Positions 5,814 through 33,207 of a DNA stretch of 64,000 bases are shown here, in pieces. Origin of the DNA: Cytophagales bacterium. Its GTDB lineage: Bacteria; Bacteroidota; Bacteroidia; Cytophagales; JAAEPT01. The DNA lies in the NCBI GenBank assembly GCA_965224495.1, contig CBDCZI010000025.1:32586-96585 (forward strand), given 5' to 3'. Position 1 is the first letter of the stretch. Every line of letters starts with the position of its first letter. The notes under the pieces were generated by a model, which was not told the DNA's origin, searched no databases, and saw nothing but the letters and a program-made list of their open reading frames with translations. The translations under genes were made by a program, and so were the position numbers.

Positions 5814-6626
5814 TTAAATCCGTTTTCCTATAACTTCAACCACTTTTTCAGACCAAAGCATTTTAAAATGTCCAGTCCCTTCTATTTCAATTAATTCAGA
5901 ATTTTCAATTAATGCACTTACAGATTTAGTGGTTTCAATTGGAATTACTTTATCTAATTTATCATGAATAAAGGTGATGTCTTTTAGTTCTATATTTTTA
6001 ATGACTGTACTGACCTTGAGTGTTAAAGGGTCATATTCAGTTGTTGTTTTTCTTATTTTATTAGTAAGTAATTTAGTGGTTTTATCTGTTAAGCCAAATT
6101 GAATTACAGCAAGATCAATAAATTCTGAAAATCTGTTAGGCGTGGTTAATGCAAACATTTTATTGACTCTATATTTTAGAGAGTTCATAGCTGTAAAGGC
6201 AAATACGGTACCCATAGAATGGGTAATAATTAAGTCATATTTATGTTTTTCTAAGAATAGTTTTACTAAATCAGCCATTTCGAAAAAACTTGTTTTTTTC
6301 TTTGTGCTTGCGCCATGACAAGGGCCATCAAAGCTAATAACTTCGTATTCTTTTTTTGTTAATTCAGGAATGATTGCACCAAAGTTAGAAGCTCTCCCTC
6401 CCCACCCATGTATAAGCAATGCTTTTTTATTTCCATTTCCCCATTTATACGTTTTAATGTTAAATTTTTTAAACCTAATTATATCCTCAGATGCGAGCTC
6501 TATTATTGATTTTTCGAATGTTCTTATTTTCTTTTTTTTTGGTTTTGAAATAAAATTAAATGCTATTTTCGCAGCTAACTTGGGTGATGCTTTTTGTAGG
6601 ATATTAAATATTGTTTTCAAATTCAT
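5814..6626 (-). CDS. alpha/beta-fold hydrolase
   Basis: Oxyanion-hole HG motif (LLIHGWGG), nucleophile elbow ITHSMGT, and C-terminal GTGHF providing the catalytic His. Confidence 0.7.
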   Translation of the reverse strand: MNLKTIFNILQKASPKLAAKIAFNFISKPKKKKIRTFEKSIIELASEDIIRFKKFNIKTYKWGNGNKKALLIHGWGGRASNFGAIIPELTKKEYEVISFDGPCHGASTKKKTSFFEMADLVKLFLEKHKYDLIITHSMGTVFAFTAMNSLKYRVNKMFALTTPNRFSEFIDLAVIQFGLTDKTTKLLTNKIRKTTTEYDPLTLKVSTVIKNIELKDITFIHDKLDKVIPIETTKSVSALIENSELIEIEGTGHFKMLWSEKVVEVIGKRI

Positions 6627-6844: not shown

Positions 6845-7030
6845 TTAGCTACCGCAATATAAACAACCATCTTCGTCATAAGTGTCAAGTTCTGGTTGTG
6901 TTTCAATAGCAGGCTGTAATTGCTTTTTTAATTCGTAAATGGCTTGTTGTGTGTCTCCGTCTTCAAATAAATTTCCTGTTAATTTAGTTTTTAAAGCCTT
7001 TATTTCTTCGTGTATTGCCTCTTCGTTCAT
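6845..7030 (-). CDS. small acidic hypothetical protein ending in C-x-x-C-G-S
   Basis: 61-aa ORF starting at ATG. Predicted helical acidic N-terminal part; the C-terminus is DEDGCLYCGS. No family recognised. Confidence 0.4.
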   Translation of the reverse strand: MNEEAIHEEIKALKTKLTGNLFEDGDTQQAIYELKKQLQPAIETQPELDTYDEDGCLYCGS

Positions 7031-7421: not shown

Positions 7422-8963
7422 CTATTTGTCCGGTTCAGCATCAATTTCGGTAATCATTTTCACAGCTTCAGGTTTTGGAGGGTAAATTTTTGAAACGATA
7501 TACCCAACAATCATTGCCAATGCAAAAGATGGTGCTAGAACATCTAATTCTTTTAAATAGTCTCCTATTCCTTCCATATTGGAAAATACAAATTTGAATA
7601 ATATGACTGAAGTAAACCCAGTAATCATAGAAGCAATCGCTCCTTTTTCTGAATATCCTTTCCAAAAAAGGGATAGAATAATTACAGGACAGAAAGTAGC
7701 GGCAATGCCAGACCATCCAAAAATCATAATCCAAAAAACTTGCCTCTCAGGATATAGATTATACAATAAAATAGCGATACCTAGTGCAGCTAGCGCCATC
7801 CCAACAGTAATTAGTCTCGAGAATTTTGTTAGGTCCTCATCCTTTAAATCAGGTCTAAATATTTTTTGATAAAAATCTCTTGTGATTGCACTAGAAGCAA
7901 GAATAAGAAGAGAGTCAATTGTTGACATAATAGCAGAAAGTACAATAGCAATGAATATTGCCACTAGAATTGTAGGTAAGAACTCATGAGTGATCATACT
8001 TAAAACGTTTTCACCTCCAGTTCCTAAAACGCCTTCAGGGTCCTGCCCTTCGGATGTGAAATAAATTCGAGCAAGAATACCAATTGTTACTGCTGCCGCA
8101 TCTGTAAAGAGCGTAAAAAGCAAAGCGACCCATTTTCCTTTATTAATTTCATTTTCACTTTTAATTGACATGAATCTAACATAAACTTGGGGGGAACCTA
8201 AGAAGCCTAATCCAATCATTGAAAATCCTAGAATTGTAAAAATATTCATCCAGCCATCAGTACTTCTTCCCATTACTTGAGTTAGGGTAGGGTCAATGGC
8301 ATTTAATCCCTCAGTTATTCCTGCACCATGATCCATTGAAAACCAAACCACGATAGGAAGCAGAACTAGACCGAAAAACATTAAAACGCCTTGGAACATA
8401 TCTGACCAAACAGCAGCTACAAATCCACCAATAAAAATATAAGCTAGAACAATAAAAAAACCAATTAATGCACCTATCCGATAGTCAACATTAAGCATTG
8501 ACTCGAAGGCAATTCCAGTCACATCCATTTGAGATGCAACATAAATCACAACAAAAATAACTAGCACAGAGGCGGCTATAATTCGAAGCGTATTTGTAGA
8601 TGATTTAAAATGACTCTGAAGGTAATCTGGAATGGTTATCGCACCATATTTATCGGATCGTTTTTTAAAGCGTTTAGCCATGAACTGCCAGGAGATAAAA
8701 ACCCCAAGTAATTCACCCGCAACAACCCAGTAGCTTGAGTAACCAGCCATAGCACCCATTCCGGTTAGTCCAATAAGTAGCCAACCAGATTCACCGGTTG
8801 CTCTTGCAGAAAATGCAACGGCCCAAAATCCCATATTTTTTCCGCCAACATAATAATCACTCATACTTTTGACGCGTCGAGAGGCGAGAATACCAATGAG
8901 AAATAGAATGCCAACATAAATAGCTAGAACAGTTATTTTTATTATTAAATTTTGATCTTGCAT
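7422..8963 (-). CDS. sodium:solute symporter family (SSF) transporter, PutP/PanF-like
   Basis: 513-aa polytopic membrane protein. SSF-like N-terminal block YYVGGKNMGFWAVAFSARATGESGWLLIGLTG and many TM segments. Confidence 0.8.
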   Translation of the reverse strand: MQDQNLIIKITVLAIYVGILFLIGILASRRVKSMSDYYVGGKNMGFWAVAFSARATGESGWLLIGLTGMGAMAGYSSYWVVAGELLGVFISWQFMAKRFKKRSDKYGAITIPDYLQSHFKSSTNTLRIIAASVLVIFVVIYVASQMDVTGIAFESMLNVDYRIGALIGFFIVLAYIFIGGFVAAVWSDMFQGVLMFFGLVLLPIVVWFSMDHGAGITEGLNAIDPTLTQVMGRSTDGWMNIFTILGFSMIGLGFLGSPQVYVRFMSIKSENEINKGKWVALLFTLFTDAAAVTIGILARIYFTSEGQDPEGVLGTGGENVLSMITHEFLPTILVAIFIAIVLSAIMSTIDSLLILASSAITRDFYQKIFRPDLKDEDLTKFSRLITVGMALAALGIAILLYNLYPERQVFWIMIFGWSGIAATFCPVIILSLFWKGYSEKGAIASMITGFTSVILFKFVFSNMEGIGDYLKELDVLAPSFALAMIVGYIVSKIYPPKPEAVKMITEIDAEPDK

Positions 8964-9132
8964 AGTGTTTGTGGTTAGTGATTTACCATTAAGTGATTTG
9001 AAAGTTTAAAACTTCAAAATAATCACTGAATAGTCGAGTTTTAAGATTGTGCAAATTGCTCATAAAAATTAGATAAATTGCAATTTTTTGATTAAAATCG
9101 TTTAAAAATAGCGGAAAAAGCATAAAAATCAC

Positions 9133-9140
9133 TATATTTG
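9133..9140 (+). promoter_or_regulatory. candidate Bacteroidetes -7 promoter box (TAnnTTTG) upstream of the CDO operon
   Basis: TATATTTG lies ~100 nt upstream of the 9244 start. This is a motif match only. Confidence 0.3.
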
Positions 9141-9243
9141 CACTATTAACGATTTGAAAAAGTCATATCGATATAATGAGTTGGATTTGGGGAATGACCT
9201 TGGATTTGTACATTAAATGAACAGAAAAAAGCGATAAATTGTT

Positions 9244-9777
9244 TTGAATTTTAACGAACACCCCCCCATATTATCTCAATCATTAAATGATTTAGCCACT
9301 GCTCTTTCTGAAGGGGAGAGGACGACCTACAATAACATAATACGCTCAATTAACTTACCAAGCACTGCTTTTGAAAGCTACTGCTCATGGTCTGATGAAT
9401 CGTATACCCGAAATTGTATTATTGATACCAAAGAATTTGAATTGATCCTATTATGCTGGGAGAAAGGACAGATGACCCCTATTCATGATCACGGTGGTGA
9501 AGAATGTTGGGTGAAAATTATCGAAGGTGAATTTAGGGAAACGATTTACAAAGAAGATGAAACCGGTGAACTCAATATTGTTAAATCGGCCATTTCAAAG
9601 TCTAACGACATTTCTTACATGATAGATTTTATGGGTTTTCATAGATTAGAAAACCTGTCTAATAAAAGAAGTATGTCTCTTCATTTATATGCGAAGCCAA
9701 TTCGAAATTGCAGGTTATTTGATGAGAATTCAAGAACATTTGTGAGTAAAAATTTAGCCTATGATACTGTATCATAG
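9244..9777 (+). CDS. cysteine dioxygenase type I (cupin), eukaryote-like active site
   Basis: 177 aa, TTG start in the ORF track. IHDHGGEECWVKIIEGEF (H-x-H with Cys 5 residues after the second His), GFHRLENLS (third His) and MSLHLYAKP (Tyr) line up with mammalian CDO1 His86/His88/Cys93/His140/Tyr157 as I recall them. Confidence 0.8.
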   Translation: MNFNEHPPILSQSLNDLATALSEGERTTYNNIIRSINLPSTAFESYCSWSDESYTRNCIIDTKEFELILLCWEKGQMTPIHDHGGEECWVKIIEGEFRETIYKEDETGELNIVKSAISKSNDISYMIDFMGFHRLENLSNKRSMSLHLYAKPIRNCRLFDENSRTFVSKNLAYDTVS

Positions 9778-9809
9778 TGAAATATTTAAATTAAAATAAT
9801 AAAAATTAC

Positions 9810-11216
9810 ATGTCTGATATTAGTAGCGATTTAGCTTTATTCAATGAATTAGCTGAAGCCTTAATAAGTGAAGAGGGGAAAAATCCAGTAGCCGATAGAA
9901 TAGATTCGAATAAACTTTACGAGTCTATTGATCTTTCGTTGAACGATTCTGGGATGATTGATAGTGAGTTTAAGACTGTACTTCGAGATATTTTAATATC
10001 CACACCAAAAACGGCAACGAATTTATTCTTTAACCAACTTTTTGGTGGAAGACAAAGTAAAGCTGTTTTAGGTGATTTACTTGCAGTTATGCTTAATAAC
10101 AGTATGTACACCTATAAGGTTGCTGGCCCACATGTTGGAATTGAGCAAGAAATTATCAGACAATCGTGTGACTTAATTGGTTACGGTTCGAAAAGTAATG
10201 GTACGTTTCCAACTGGTGGTTCAATGAGTAATTATATGGCTTTGGTAATGGGTCGTGATGCCAAAGATCCAAATTGTAGATTAGATGGAATGTCTAAACC
10301 ACTGGTTATTTATACCTCAGTTGAATCACATTATTCAACTGCAAAAAATGCCAGTTTTGCTGGAATTGGTAGAAATAATATACGATTTATTGAAGCCGAT
10401 TCAAAAGGACGAATGATTCCTGAGCAATTGGAAGCACAAATTATTGATGACTTGGAAAACGGATTCATTCCTGCCTATGTTAACGCAACTGCTGGAACAA
10501 CTGTTTTAGGCGCTTTTGATCCAATTGATAAAATTGCTGATATCACAGAAAAATACAAAATTTGGTTGCATATTGATGGTGCATATGCAGGTAGTGTTAT
10601 TTTCAGTGATGAATATAAACACCTTGTCAAAGGGGCGGATAGATCAGATTCGTTTAGTTATAATGCCCACAAAATGATTGGGACACCGCTAACATGTTCA
10701 ATCATTTTAGTCAACGATAAAAAATATTTACATAATTCATTTAGTAATGATGCTGATTATCTTTATCAAACAGATGGTGATGATTTTAACTTAGGTAAAA
10801 CATCATTTCAATGTGGAAGAAGAAATGATGCCTTGAAGTTTTGGACGCTTTGGAAATCTGTAGGGACTGTTGGTTTAAAACAAATTGTAGATCAGCAATT
10901 TGAATTAGCAGATGTTGCCCGTGAATACGTTCAATCTAACCCAGATTACAATCTATATAGTTTTGATGATTCAATTTCGATCTGTTTCAATTATAAAAAT
11001 ATTGATCCAATGGTACTTTGTACTGCGTTATATGAACATCAAGTTACGGTTGTAGGATTTGGGTCTTTTAATGCTGATACTTTTGTTCGGTTAGTAACTA
11101 TTAACGCTAATAATTCAGTGCAAGATATTTTGAATTTCTTTAAAGTTCTAGAAGAATTTGTTGAGAAAAATCCAAGCTTAGCAAAAGTAAAAGAAAAGGA
11201 ACAAGCGCAAATATAA
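9810..11216 (+). CDS. group II PLP-dependent decarboxylase, cysteine-sulfinate decarboxylase (CSAD)-like
   Basis: 468 aa. PLP-lysine motif SYNAHKM. FFNQLFGG and NNSMYTYK blocks resemble CSAD (FFNQLF / NTSQYTYE) rather than GAD (FNQLS / NTNMFTYE). Starts 32 nt after the CDO gene on the same strand. Confidence 0.8.
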   Translation: MSDISSDLALFNELAEALISEEGKNPVADRIDSNKLYESIDLSLNDSGMIDSEFKTVLRDILISTPKTATNLFFNQLFGGRQSKAVLGDLLAVMLNNSMYTYKVAGPHVGIEQEIIRQSCDLIGYGSKSNGTFPTGGSMSNYMALVMGRDAKDPNCRLDGMSKPLVIYTSVESHYSTAKNASFAGIGRNNIRFIEADSKGRMIPEQLEAQIIDDLENGFIPAYVNATAGTTVLGAFDPIDKIADITEKYKIWLHIDGAYAGSVIFSDEYKHLVKGADRSDSFSYNAHKMIGTPLTCSIILVNDKKYLHNSFSNDADYLYQTDGDDFNLGKTSFQCGRRNDALKFWTLWKSVGTVGLKQIVDQQFELADVAREYVQSNPDYNLYSFDDSISICFNYKNIDPMVLCTALYEHQVTVVGFGSFNADTFVRLVTINANNSVQDILNFFKVLEEFVEKNPSLAKVKEKEQAQI

Positions 11217-11944
11217 AACGGTATTAACGATTTTTAGTAAATTAATGTTGGACTAAAGTTCCCTTTGATTTCTTTTTTAAGTCAAGAATTACATGATAAG
11301 AAATGTTGGGGTTTTTATGTCTTCCTGTTAAAGGATTCTAAGCATAGACTGGAATGCTTATTAAGCGCTCCATAATTCCATTAAATAATGTAATGATCTC
11401 CATTTGTGAATAGACTTGTGTTAGCTATTTTTGATATCGCTTAAGTTCAAATATATGGTCTGATCAAAATAAACCATAGGTTGGCTTTTATGTTTTATTT
11501 CGTATTAAAAATCTTCATCTTGAGCAAAAATTAATTTTGTGGTCAAGATAAGAATGAATAAAACAGAATATTTGGGAAGTTTTTTTTCTTAATTAAGGTT
11601 GAGGCTGGAATATATAATTATTGTTTTAACTCAAAATTAATCAATCAATAGAACTTTTAAAATTTTTGAACGACTAGCCTATTTATATACTTTTTCAGTT
11701 CAATATAACTTTGCTTTACTAAGCAACAAGTTTAGTGCTTTATCAATTATTTTCCTTCAGTTACTACTTCGTATAAATCTTTTTAAGGTGAATTTTGGTA
11801 TCCTTTTTTGTTTAATTTCTGCAATTTTTTCTCGTGTCCCCCATATGTCTCCCTTCAAAATTCGTAGTGGGGTAGGTTAATTTGATAGGTTTGCTGAGGC
11901 ATATCTAAAGTGTTGAAATTAGGTTTGATAAAATATAATCAATT

Positions 11945-12226
11945 ATGAAAAAACAGTTATTTACATTATTCAATTTATTTTTATTATCAGTCTCTACATT
12001 AAATGCTCAAACCTCGGTTTGGACTCAAAAATCTAAAATTGTGGCACAAGATCGTGATTATAGCGATCAATTCGGTGGAGGGAATACAAATAACCAAGGG
12101 GCAGTTAGTATTTCTGGAATTATTGCAATAGTTGGTGCAGTGACGGATAACCATTCTGACTTAAATAATCCTGGGGCTGCTTATATTTATGAAAAAAGTG
12201 CGCTTAGGCATTTAGTTGTTTTTTAA
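11945..12226 (+). pseudogene. N-terminal fragment of a secreted FG-GAP-like repeat protein
   Basis: Signal peptide MKKQLFTLFNLFLLSVSTLNAQ then GAVSISG...GAAYIYEK. The frame stops after 93 aa, and no continuation appears in any frame when the nearby A6 run is shifted. Confidence 0.4.
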
Positions 12227-12355
12227 GCCGAAATAGTCCTTTTTATTGCTGTCTATCTATATAATAGTTGTTTAATCTCTTGTTGGCAATAGTTTAGATA
12301 AACACTTTTATTTGTGTCATTCGATCACATCTTATTTATCTCTTAATCACTTACT

Positions 12356-12658
12356 ATGTTTAAAAAAATTGAACGTTTAAAGTACATGGATTACCTTATT
12401 CGAATCGAAGGAACAGGTGATATGGAAGAGTTTGCAAGAAAAATGAGTATTTCACACAGTACATGTGGTGAGTATATAAAAATTTTAAGAGGGATGGGAG
12501 CTAAAATTGACTATTGTCGTTATAAAAACACATATAAATACTCTGAACCAGTGGAATTTTTTATTGGCTATAAAAACTTGCCAGAGAATTATATGATCAA
12601 AGTAACTGGAGGTAAAAGGGACGAACTATTATTTTGGAAAAATAAGATCATTTCGTGA
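12356..12658 (+). CDS. small HTH-domain protein (putative regulator)
   Basis: 100 aa. MEEFARKMSISHSTCGEYIKILRGMG looks like a winged-HTH recognition unit. No family assigned. Confidence 0.4.
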   Translation: MFKKIERLKYMDYLIRIEGTGDMEEFARKMSISHSTCGEYIKILRGMGAKIDYCRYKNTYKYSEPVEFFIGYKNLPENYMIKVTGGKRDELLFWKNKIIS

Positions 12659-30756: not shown

Positions 30757-33207
30757 ATGAAAACAATGTTTTTTTATTTATTGATGATAGGCACTTTGCT
30801 ATTCTCAACTGCGGTTTCGGCTAATCCTAATGATTCAACTGTAGCTACTGCTGCTGAAATGTCATTGGAAAGCATCCAAAAATCAGTAAATCTTTCTGGT
30901 TTTGATTATCTATTTACGAATGATGTAGATACTTTAACGTTAAAAGCATTTTCTATAGGTGAATTAGCATTCAAATGGGATGGCCTTGAATCAGGAGACT
31001 CTTTTATTGGTTTTAAGTTTAGAGCTGATGACAATGATAATTGGACGGAAGCTGTGATTGAATCTTCAGCAAAGGAAATTATTTTCAATAACATTGACGA
31101 AAATAAAATGTTTGAATTAATGATAGGATCAGGACATAATGCCGGTTCAATTATATACGACAGCATGGTCCATCATGTTAATTCATTCGGAGAAACCATG
31201 TTTAAAAGTAATCAAGCAGAAGGTAAAGAAGAGGCTGTTACTATTACATGGGGAATTGAAAATGATCTTTTACAATCTATTTTAACTGTTTACCCGAAAG
31301 CTTCTTTTACATTAAAATATAATACTAAGATTGGAAAAAAACAACATAAAGCGGATAAAAGAAAAGCACCTTGGACAGTTGTTGAGGACATTTCAATTAA
31401 TAAAGTTTCCCATAAAATTAAAGAGCTTTCTGGAGGCGAAAACTATGTTTATAAAATTGGGGTTGAAATTGGAGATAAAACAGTTTGGGGAAAAGGAAGT
31501 AAGTTTGAAACAGAACGTGTTTGGGGCGTGTTTAAGATGCTTGTTTTAATTGGTGCATTGGGTATGTTCATCTTTGGAATGAAAATCATGTCAGAAGGCC
31601 TTCAACAGGCTGCTGGATCAAGTTTGCGGAATATGCTTGGACGAATTACTTCAAATCGATTTAAAAGTGTGTTGTCTGGTGTAGGAATTACATCTGTCGT
31701 CCAGTCCTCCTCCGTCACAACAGTGATGGTAGTAAGTTTTGTTAATGCAGGGTTGATGACTTTGAAACAGTCAGTAGGTGTAATGATGGGCGCTAATATT
31801 GGGACTACAATGACTGCATGGTTAATTTTAGTGTTTGGATTTAAAGTGAGCATTAGCTCATATGCATTAATACTAATTGCCTTTGGGGCGCCAATGTTGT
31901 TTTTTACTAAAGGGAAAATTAAGATTTGGGCGAGTGTAATTATTGGATTTGCCTTATTATTTATGGGACTTGGTGAATTGAAAGATGCGGTGCCGAGTTT
32001 AGGTGTTGATTCTGGCTTAGTTCAGTTCTTTATTGAATACAAAGATTCTGGAATTTTAGGCACATTAATGTTTATTGGATTGGGAACAATAGTGACTGTT
32101 GTTATTCAGTCTTCCTCTGCTGCAATGGCTTTAACTATGACAATGGTTGCTGGTGGTGTACTTCCTTTTGAAGTTGCTGCGGCAATGATACTTGGTGAAA
32201 ATATAGGGACAACAATTACAGCTCAACTTGCTGCACTTATTGGTAACGTCCATGCAAAGAGAGCTGCAAGAATTCACGCTTTGTTTAATGTCATAGGTGT
32301 TGTTTGGATGGTGCTTGTGTTTCACTATTTCTTAAAAGGGATTGCCTATTTTATGGAAGGTGACCCATTTAATAATCCTGAAGCTGCGAATGTAGGAATT
32401 GCAATTTTCCATACAGCCTTTAATTTAGCTAATGTATTGTTATTGATTTGGTTTACGCCAAAATTAGTTTCTATGGCTGAGAAGAGTGTTCGTTCTAAAG
32501 GAGCTGCAGATGAAGAGTTCCACTTAGATTATATTGGAACAGGGATGATGGGAACACCTGATTTATCAATTTTAGAAGCTAAAAAAGAAGTCGCGAAATT
32601 TGGTGGTATTACGAGTAGAATGTCAGGTTTCACACAATCACTTTTAACGGAACAGAATTCTAAAGTCAAATCAAAACTATATACGAAAATTGCGAAGTAT
32701 GAAGAAATTACCGATAGAGTAGAGATCGAGGTCGCTAATTACCTAGCACAAGTATCTAAAGGTGAAATGACGGATGATACGGCCTATAAGGTTCGTGCAA
32801 TGAACAGTATTGTTAACGACCTAGAAAGAATTGGTGATATTTTTTACCAAATTTCGAAAAGTATAGAGCGTAAGGATGAAGAGAAGATTTGGTTTGTACC
32901 AGAACAAAGGGAAAGTTTATTAGAGATGTTTAAATTAGTAGATGATGCTTTTGATATAATGGTTGAAAATCTTGATTCTGATTGGGGTGGTGTATCTATT
33001 GAGCCAGCAAATGATGCTGAAACTATAATCAATAGAAAAAGAGATAAAATGAAACAAGAACATTTATCTAATTTGAATAAGAAAGACTTTAACTTGGAAA
33101 GTGGAATGATCTTTAGTAACATTTTTTCACTGTGTGAGAAAGCAGGTGATCATATTATAAATGTGTCCGAAGCAGTTGTAGGGCCGCCACACCCTGTGAG
33201 AAAGTAA
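30757..33207 (+). CDS. Na+/phosphate cotransporter (NptA/SLC34-like) with C-terminal PhoU-like domain and a ~250-aa N-terminal extracytoplasmic extension
   Basis: 816 aa. The duplicated QSSS motifs typical of Na/Pi-II transporters are present (VVQSSSVTTVM and VIQSSSAAMAL). The C-terminal helical region (ITDRVEIEVANYL...VNDLERIGDIFYQI...EKAGDHIINV) is PhoU-like. The N-terminus has a signal peptide plus ~250 soluble residues. Confidence 0.8.
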   Translation: MKTMFFYLLMIGTLLFSTAVSANPNDSTVATAAEMSLESIQKSVNLSGFDYLFTNDVDTLTLKAFSIGELAFKWDGLESGDSFIGFKFRADDNDNWTEAVIESSAKEIIFNNIDENKMFELMIGSGHNAGSIIYDSMVHHVNSFGETMFKSNQAEGKEEAVTITWGIENDLLQSILTVYPKASFTLKYNTKIGKKQHKADKRKAPWTVVEDISINKVSHKIKELSGGENYVYKIGVEIGDKTVWGKGSKFETERVWGVFKMLVLIGALGMFIFGMKIMSEGLQQAAGSSLRNMLGRITSNRFKSVLSGVGITSVVQSSSVTTVMVVSFVNAGLMTLKQSVGVMMGANIGTTMTAWLILVFGFKVSISSYALILIAFGAPMLFFTKGKIKIWASVIIGFALLFMGLGELKDAVPSLGVDSGLVQFFIEYKDSGILGTLMFIGLGTIVTVVIQSSSAAMALTMTMVAGGVLPFEVAAAMILGENIGTTITAQLAALIGNVHAKRAARIHALFNVIGVVWMVLVFHYFLKGIAYFMEGDPFNNPEAANVGIAIFHTAFNLANVLLLIWFTPKLVSMAEKSVRSKGAADEEFHLDYIGTGMMGTPDLSILEAKKEVAKFGGITSRMSGFTQSLLTEQNSKVKSKLYTKIAKYEEITDRVEIEVANYLAQVSKGEMTDDTAYKVRAMNSIVNDLERIGDIFYQISKSIERKDEEKIWFVPEQRESLLEMFKLVDDAFDIMVENLDSDWGGVSIEPANDAETIINRKRDKMKQEHLSNLNKKDFNLESGMIFSNIFSLCEKAGDHIINVSEAVVGPPHPVRK

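Follow-up and report, generated by a model that had tools for sequence, protein, structure and literature searches.

What does a bacterium of the order Cytophagales do with a cysteine dioxygenase (CDO) and a decarboxylase encoded side by side, and where did it get them? The question arises from a 64,000-nt stretch of the assembly GCA_965224495.1 (Cytophagales bacterium, contig CBDCZI010000025.1, forward-strand positions 32,586 to 96,585), here called the window, whose first letter is position 1 in the coordinates below unless another locus is named. An open reading frame (ORF) of 177 aa with a TTG start (9244-9777, plus strand) is followed, after a gap of 32 nt (9778-9809), by one of 468 aa with an ATG start on the same strand (9810-11216). 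An earlier note, made from the letters alone, had read the two as neighbouring genes for a eukaryote-like CDO and a decarboxylase resembling cysteine sulfinate decarboxylase (CSAD), and had predicted that together they turn cysteine into cysteine sulfinate and then hypotaurine. The ORF list confirms the coordinates and the spacing, every peptide string that the note quoted for either protein is present in the translations, and no terminator-like site was found between the two genes. Residues, synteny, natural gene fusions and the presence of PanD in the genome all support the predicted route from cysteine through cysteine sulfinate to hypotaurine, to which we assign a probability of roughly 0.8.

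The identity of the first enzyme comes from its family and from the residues around its active site. The product of 9244-9777 matches Pfam CDO_I (PF05995) with 91.2 bits (cut-off 23; 7e-26), and its similarity to solved structures runs from human, rat and mouse CDO1 (about 1e-22) through Bacillus subtilis CDO (1e-10) to 3-mercaptopropionate dioxygenase (MDO; 2e-3). In a HMMER alignment to human and rat CDO1, the iron ligands of the rat enzyme, H86, H88 and H140, correspond to H81 and H83 (in the string IHDHGGEEC) and H133 (in GFHRLEN); Y54 and R56 correspond to Y58 and R60, within the same YTRN string; C88, five residues past the second His, corresponds to rat C93; and S145, H147 and Y149 (in SLHLYAKP) correspond to the S153/H155/Y157 triad. 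The three-His iron site and the Cys and Tyr crosslink positions that the earlier note had picked out by eye therefore hold up in the alignment. Arg60 binds the substrate carboxylate, and 3-mercaptopropionate dioxygenases have Gln in its place. Taken together, these equivalences indicate an Arg-type CDO that carries both residues of the mammalian Cys-Tyr cofactor, and we accordingly annotate the product as a predicted Arg-type cysteine dioxygenase with C88 and Y149 as candidates for the crosslink. Among the 120 closest homologues, the number examined for each of the two proteins, the three iron His residues are invariant, Arg at the Arg60 position and Cys at position 93 are each found in 120 of 120, and the triad keeps its His and Tyr throughout, with Ser or Thr at the Ser position. 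The sequence leaves no ambiguity about the fold, and the genome encodes one CDO only. Schultz et al. 2023 reportedly made a bioinformatic survey that bears on Cys93-type CDOs of Gram-negative bacteria. The earlier note's statement that Gly occupies the place of the crosslink Cys in most bacterial CDOs agrees with passages in the literature: one in PMC13689094 gives Gly as the usual residue at position 93 and mentions Cys93-bearing enzymes, such as those of Bordetella pertussis, and one in PMC8050391 describes bacterial CDOs as generally using an unmodified Tyr.

The second enzyme is a group II decarboxylase dependent on pyridoxal 5'-phosphate (PLP), as had been proposed. It matches Pfam Pyridoxal_deC with 244.5 bits (2e-72), its PLP lysine K288 sits in an NAHK block (N-x-H-K) and is invariant among the homologues, and no NCBIfam equivalog model reaches its cut-off, all of them scoring far below. 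Ranked against solved relatives, it is closest to mouse CSAD (1.5e-81) and human CSAD (9e-81), followed by GADL1 (1.9e-78) and the glutamate decarboxylases (GAD) GAD67 (2.3e-74) and GAD65 (9e-71); diaminobutyrate decarboxylases are much weaker, at 4e-50 or worse, and aromatic and histidine decarboxylases likewise fall far below CSAD. The possibility that it groups instead with diaminobutyrate, tyrosine or glutamate decarboxylases thus finds no favour in this ranking. Selectivity was read from an ungapped alignment of the motif region, as X1-(19 aa)-X2-(1 aa)-X3. The query has F78, S98 and Y100 at these positions, within the strings FFNQLF (73-78) and NNSMYTY (96-102); human and mouse CSAD have the same F/S/Y, GADL1 has Y/S/Y and so differs at X1 only, and GAD67, with S/N/F, differs at all three. 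The Phe, Ser and Tyr that the earlier note had called CSAD-like are therefore identical to those of CSAD when aligned with solved CSAD, GADL1 and GAD67. In human CSAD we take the positions to be F94, S114 and Y116, numbered as in Agnello et al. 2013. A passage in PMC8153620, citing Agnello et al., names three active-site positions as setting CSAD against GAD selectivity. The triplet is invariant among the 120 homologues, and it is informative because only 45 of 151 decarboxylase representatives in a family-wide survey (clustered at 50%) carry it, the others having WSY, YNH, FTA, YSA and further combinations. That the product of 9810-11216 is a CSAD-type group II PLP decarboxylase, with predicted activity on cysteine sulfinate, is well supported.

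If the two enzymes act in sequence, their genes might be expected to stay together, and for the most part they do. We counted synteny in the best 80 loci (decarboxylase 67-87% identical to the query) of at least 554 stretches matched in species-representative genomes. In 67 of the 80, the gene directly upstream of the decarboxylase, on the same strand and 20-47 nt away, encodes a CDO. In one case the genes have become one: P0241 is a single chain of 634 aa whose N-terminal CDO_I domain (65 bits) has the H-x-H, Cys93 and Tyr157 and whose C-terminal decarboxylase shares 57% identity with the query, as well as its FFNQLFGG and NNSMYTY blocks. P0248 is a second, more divergent cupin-decarboxylase fusion. 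Within the window's own order, two loci have the genes in reversed order, decarboxylase then CDO (L098, G211:C214; L100, G125:C18); at about 45% identity for the decarboxylase and 30-37% for the CDO, these pairs are distant from the query and still keep all CDO hallmarks, including Cys93, together with F/S/Y. In CDO-family members without a neighbouring decarboxylase (L106, L114), position 93 is Ile or Val. Since distant reversed pairs keep both sets of hallmarks and unpaired CDOs have Ile or Val, Cys93-type CDOs and F/S/Y decarboxylases travel together. Cys93 is also kept by the distant CDOs of L098, L100 and L101, two of which adjoin a decarboxylase.

The module has a third conserved member. 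Divergent from the CDO gene, on the minus strand, lies an ORF of 513 aa (7422-8963) for an SSF-family Na+/solute symporter (Pfam SSF, 5.8e-75). The NCBIfam model Na_Pro_sym gives 333.6 bits where the cut-off is 515.5, so that the protein is PutP-like yet below the PutP cut-off, and solved relatives (vSGLT, SiaT, CHT1) match at the level of the superfamily only. The symporter is present in 51 of the 80 loci, mostly divergent from CDO, at 66-90% identity, which bears out the earlier note both in that the transporter is real and in that it is linked to the pair. Of the three genes it is the best conserved: in the 44 loci that have them all, its median identity to the window is 83%, compared with 81% for the decarboxylase and 63% for the CDO. 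Several loci without an adjacent CDO retain the symporter beside the decarboxylase.

The route that these genes suggest would begin with an Arg-type iron cupin that oxidises L-cysteine with O2 to cysteine sulfinate. The CSAD-type PLP decarboxylase, presumably co-transcribed, would then take off the alpha-carboxyl group to give hypotaurine, which would be open to further oxidation to taurine. The divergent symporter would most likely import the product, recapturing it as in compatible-solute systems, or else a precursor. Sulfoacetaldehyde acetyltransferase (Xsc) was looked for in the genome and none was found above the family cut-off, so the usual route of taurine catabolism is unlikely there; the cell probably retains the product as an osmolyte or antioxidant, or releases it, rather than catabolising it.

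Several observations weigh against the hypotaurine route. In ten loci with sufficient room upstream, no CDO adjoins the decarboxylase. Neither the family of the symporter nor its solved relatives point to a substrate. An insect aspartate decarboxylase/CSAD representative, P0372, also has F/S/Y, so the triplet alone leaves room for activity on either aspartate or cysteate, and the query may have some of it. Lastly, mammalian Ser158-Pro159 is replaced by Ala-Lys in the query (A150-K151, window 9691-9696) and in 119 of the 120 CDO homologues, and because of this replacement the geometry around Tyr157 may differ. Driggers et al. 2015 are said to have described Ser158-Pro159 as a cis-peptide in mammalian CDO; we regard it as a trait of the mammalian enzyme and not as one that defines the family.

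How far do such points favour another reading? One alternative leaves the chemistry as it is and changes only its purpose: the pair would serve mainly to dispose of cysteine, the CDO taking away the excess and the decarboxylase clearing the resulting sulfinate, with hypotaurine as an excreted by-product. Passages in PMC13689094 describe CDOs that shield bacteria from excess cysteine, in B. pertussis, and the same passages tell of other bacterial CDO routes that reach pyruvate and sulfite without any decarboxylase, which weighs against this alternative. The lack of an Xsc above the cut-off would suit an excreted product, and the conserved weak TTG start and private leader element of the operon (see below) suggest the tightly gated expression that disposal might call for; a dedicated and very highly conserved Na+ symporter, however, fits the handling of a solute better than the removal of waste. 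We consider this alternative unlikely. A further possibility is that the decarboxylase works on a different substrate, brought in by the symporter: it would then make beta-alanine from aspartate or, directly, taurine from imported cysteate. GADL1 and the insect aspartate decarboxylases are close relatives (one of the insect representatives being the F/S/Y protein just mentioned), some orthologues bear the JGI label 'sulfinoalanine decarboxylase/aspartate 1-decarboxylase', and several of the ten loci without an adjacent CDO do have the symporter. But the genome has a canonical pyruvoyl PanD (173.9 bits), so that a PLP decarboxylase is not needed for beta-alanine; a CDO gene accompanies the decarboxylase in most loci and is encoded elsewhere in 6 of the 9 genomes whose decarboxylase has no adjacent CDO; and natural fusions of CDO and decarboxylase exist. 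On balance this seems very unlikely. Scarcely credible, finally, is that the cupin acts on 3-mercaptopropionate, cysteamine or the N-terminal Cys of peptides and stands beside the decarboxylase by coincidence. A secondary Pfam match to PCO_ADO speaks for it and is weak (23.7 bits, below the cut-off of 27), and the specific case of a 3-mercaptopropionate enzyme, which the earlier note had set against its own prediction, finds no support here: the residue that distinguishes the two types is an invariant Arg, and the MDO match is very much poorer than that to CDO1. The conserved operon structure and the gene fusions leave little room for coincidence. We therefore continue to favour the route from cysteine to hypotaurine.

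Having a plausible pathway, one may ask how its expression is controlled. The region around the locus is AT-rich (about 31% G+C), and the 280 nt between symporter and CDO genes (8964-9243) are of conserved length: 41 of 43 loci have a divergent spacer of about 241-291 nt. The CDO gene starts with TTG (9244-9246), and about 50 of 65 loci have TTG where the alignment places the start (equivalents in L016-L091); in 35 loci TTG is the sole in-frame start. This suggests that translation initiation is deliberately weak or regulated. Bacteroidetes promoters have a -7 consensus of TAnnTTTG. A box of this type, TAtaTTTG, can be read on the plus strand at 9133-9140 and is a predicted promoter; a block cTAt.TTtg, about 100 nt upstream of CDO, is conserved across the alignment of 43 intergenic regions. 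With transcription starting where this box would place it, the CDO operon would have a leader of about 95-100 nt.

Within that leader lies a conserved alignment block of 40 nt, GGATTTGGGGAATGACCTTGGATTTGTACATTAAATGAAC (9183-9222, plus strand), which we regard as a real conserved cis-element. It comprises a candidate hairpin of 10 bp (5' arm 9183-9192, loop 9193-9197, 3' arm 9198-9207) and a conserved tail, UGUACAUUAAAUGAAC. Strict matching finds the element in about 24 loci and loose matching in about 44, at -52 to -68 nt relative to the TTG and invariably on the sense strand, and its pattern occurs in one copy per genome, at this site only. RNAalifold folds the alignment into the 10-bp helix with 98% of cells paired, and this register is the best, pairing dropping to 71-72% if it is slid by one column. 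Nearly all substitutions in the helix exchange one purine for the other opposite a U, a pattern in keeping with an RNA helix on this strand; both partners have changed in one helix pair only, in two sequences, the leader of the window itself has no exceptional stability (z = -0.56), and Rfam gave no match to the intergenic region or the leader. Just as good as the RNA hairpin is another reading, in which a direct repeat, TTGGATTTG-N11-TTGGATTTG, acts as a DNA operator. Three loci without a detectable CDO keep the element (L037 842-881, L038 861-900, L064 5147-5186), there 230-310 nt upstream of the decarboxylase, and this retention points to secondary loss of CDO from the operon. One Polaribacter sub-clade has a different leader.

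We speculate, as a rather unlikely combination of readings, that the leader is a new cis-regulatory switch of a hypotaurine operon, that the operon is a self-regulated mobile cassette and that marine Bacteroidota are producers. As part of this doubtful combination, the element might be a small RNA that senses one of the metabolites cysteine, hypotaurine and taurine, or a site at which an RNA- or DNA-binding regulator acts; and, just as tentatively, it might gate translation of CDO at the weak TTG start. Other candidates in the same region were set aside. The heptamer AGTGATT/AATCACT occurs four times in the window's divergent intergenic region (8977-8983, 8992-8998, 9021-9027 and 9127-9133, the last abutting the -7 box) and was rejected as a conserved operator, since the 42 equivalent intergenic regions have 0-2 copies; it is specific to this genome. 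A sequence-variable hairpin further upstream in the leader gives a moderate signal (mean z -1.3, with 15 of 32 below -1.5) and is not claimed. A pseudoknot between loop AAUG and a downstream CAUU was dropped because the loop varies, the downstream part is fixed and no covariation is seen by eye, and an upstream mini-ORF at a conserved ATGAAC was dropped because several loci have TTG, TTA or ATA in place of the ATG, and conservation of the frame is lacking too.

Where did the module come from? Close homologues occur in Polaribacter (including P. irgensii 23-P and P. filamentus), Tenacibaculum, Dokdonia, Lacinutrix and Crocinitomix, and also in Roseivirga, Saprospiraceae, Cyclobacteriaceae, Owenweeksia and many marine metagenomes. 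Near the window's own lineage the picture is different. Among the 13 genomes (11 genera) of its family the module is present in this genome alone, and an even sample of its order has a true orthologue in 2 of 401 genomes, the other being 86% identical. More than 80% amino acid identity to genera of other orders, together with near absence from close relatives, means that the lineage acquired the module horizontally, from other marine Bacteroidota. The earlier note had called such a pathway rare in prokaryotes; this stands as a general statement, and within the window's own order, and it does not stand for marine Bacteroidota, where the decarboxylase scan found its many matches.

The term 'eukaryote-like' also needs to be divided. 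In a FastTree phylogeny of 128 family members, the query decarboxylase clusters with sequences from flavobacteria (support 100). Together with the fusion protein P0241 it falls in a clade of 8 rows (support 100), which is nested in a clade of 31 rows of shorter proteins. The few named members of the latter are bacterial (Gemmatimonadales, Planctomycetota and metagenome-assembled genomes (MAGs) of Deltaproteobacteria), and none of the 20 representative clusters looked up bears a cyanobacterial label. The animal clade, anchored by the insect protein P0372 and a shark GAD1-like sequence (P0359), lies apart from the query's clade, and in this tree the query is not nested in it. The bacterial clade being separate from the animal one, 'eukaryote-like' means similarity and not recent transfer from animals: the resemblance to animal CDO1 and CSAD is real, and derivation from animals is contradicted by a bacterial clade that stands outside the animal CSAD/GAD/ADC clade. 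The decarboxylase would thus belong to a bacterial sister lineage that is CSAD-like in its predicted function. Module genes 81-85% identical to those of Bacteroidota also appear in MAGs labelled Acidimicrobiia, Arenicella and Porticoccaceae (L022, L024, L053, L092), either as binning contamination or through very recent transfer between phyla.

The surroundings of the module yield a few further observations. An ORF of 61 aa with a CxxC motif (6845-7030) and an alpha/beta hydrolase gene (5814-6626), both upstream of the symporter, are beside the module in 0 of the 80 related loci and lie outside it. On the other side, the region after the decarboxylase stop (11217-12355) includes about 0.7 kb without a credible ORF and without a terminator-like site; a match there to the Rfam DUF3800-V RNA (11287-11377) is below threshold (22.9 bits, the gathering score being 37.4; E = 0.25). 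Neither of the small ORFs at 11945-12226 and 12356-12658 adjoins the module in any of the other 80 loci, in keeping with an insertion boundary. The sequencing runs that contain the locus consist of thin contig sets, at a depth of about 2. Elsewhere, the gene for the fusion protein (L096, 4561-6905) overlaps an upstream OsmC gene by 4 nt, with SelO and MsrA nearby, and MsrA or SelO flank two decarboxylase loci that have no CDO (L060 2094-2624, L062 3271-4890). Such neighbours hint at an antioxidant role of hypotaurine; as support for that role we set them aside, as three loci are anecdotal.

What, then, does the locus add? At the least it is a data point for a three-gene cassette of symporter, CDO and decarboxylase that moves between orders of marine Bacteroidota, and the module also points to a putative regulatory leader and a conserved non-ATG start. 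Cys93 and Tyr157 in bacterial CDOs coupled to a decarboxylase qualify the usual claim that bacterial CDOs lack the crosslink. If marine Bacteroidota indeed make and release hypotaurine or taurine, this would bear on the sources of abundant dissolved organosulfur in the sea; and if the more speculative combination of leader switch and mobile cassette were also true, abundant marine Bacteroidota would be producers of dissolved hypotaurine and taurine, and not consumers only.

Set beside known systems, the window's enzymes resemble the mammalian ones in their active sites. Like mammalian CDO1, the window's CDO keeps the three-His site, Arg60, the Ser-His-Tyr triad and Cys93/Tyr157, differing in its Ala-Lys for Ser158-Pro159; like mammalian CSAD, the decarboxylase keeps F/S/Y and the PLP lysine, differing in its length (468 aa as against about 493-520) and in belonging to a separate bacterial clade. 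The same two reactions are predicted for the pair, encoded here, unlike the mammalian genes, in an operon with a transporter. GADL1 and the insect aspartate 1-decarboxylases act on cysteine sulfinate as well as on aspartate. They belong to the same group II subfamily as the window's decarboxylase, GADL1 being its third-best solved match, whereas the latter has F/S/Y where GADL1 has Y/S/Y, is coupled to a CDO and stands in a genome with PanD. The Gly93-type CDO of B. subtilis and the Gln-type MDO share the PF05995 cupin family with the window's CDO and, in contrast to it, lack Cys93, the MDO lacking Arg60 as well. BP2871 and BP3011 of B. pertussis have Cys at the crosslink position, as does the window's CDO, the crosslink itself being putative in both cases; unlike it, they serve cysteine detoxification with a sulfite exporter and have no decarboxylase partner.

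The nearest known counterpart is bacterial. Agnello et al. 2013 (ACS Chem Biol 8:2264) are reported to have described a prokaryotic CDO-CSAD taurine operon and characterised the enzymes of Synechococcus sp. PCC 7335. Passages that cite this work mention a few marine microbes whose CSAD genes share an operon with CDO (bioRxiv 10.1101/2024.03.02.583032), the expression and purification of Synechococcus PCC 7335 CSAD (PMC8153620) and a cysteine route to taurine in 'marine cyanobacteria and marine flavobacteria' (PMC12585060). Likened to that marine operon by its description, a CDO and a decarboxylase with the CSAD motif in one operon of marine bacteria, the window's pair differs in nothing essential; in P. 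irgensii 23-P (L058) the genes are 60-81% identical to those of the window, and many orthologues are already named sulfinoalanine decarboxylase or cysteine dioxygenase in JGI and NCBI. With the pathway published in 2013 and the orthologues annotated, the pair is no new prediction; it is a further member of a known pathway and a routine find. Mildly novel are the conserved leader with its TTG start, the tight linkage of the symporter and the tie between Cys93 and decarboxylase-coupled bacterial CDOs, and what the window offers beyond the operon of 2013 is the SSF symporter as a third member, the conserved TTG and leader, and arrival by horizontal transfer.

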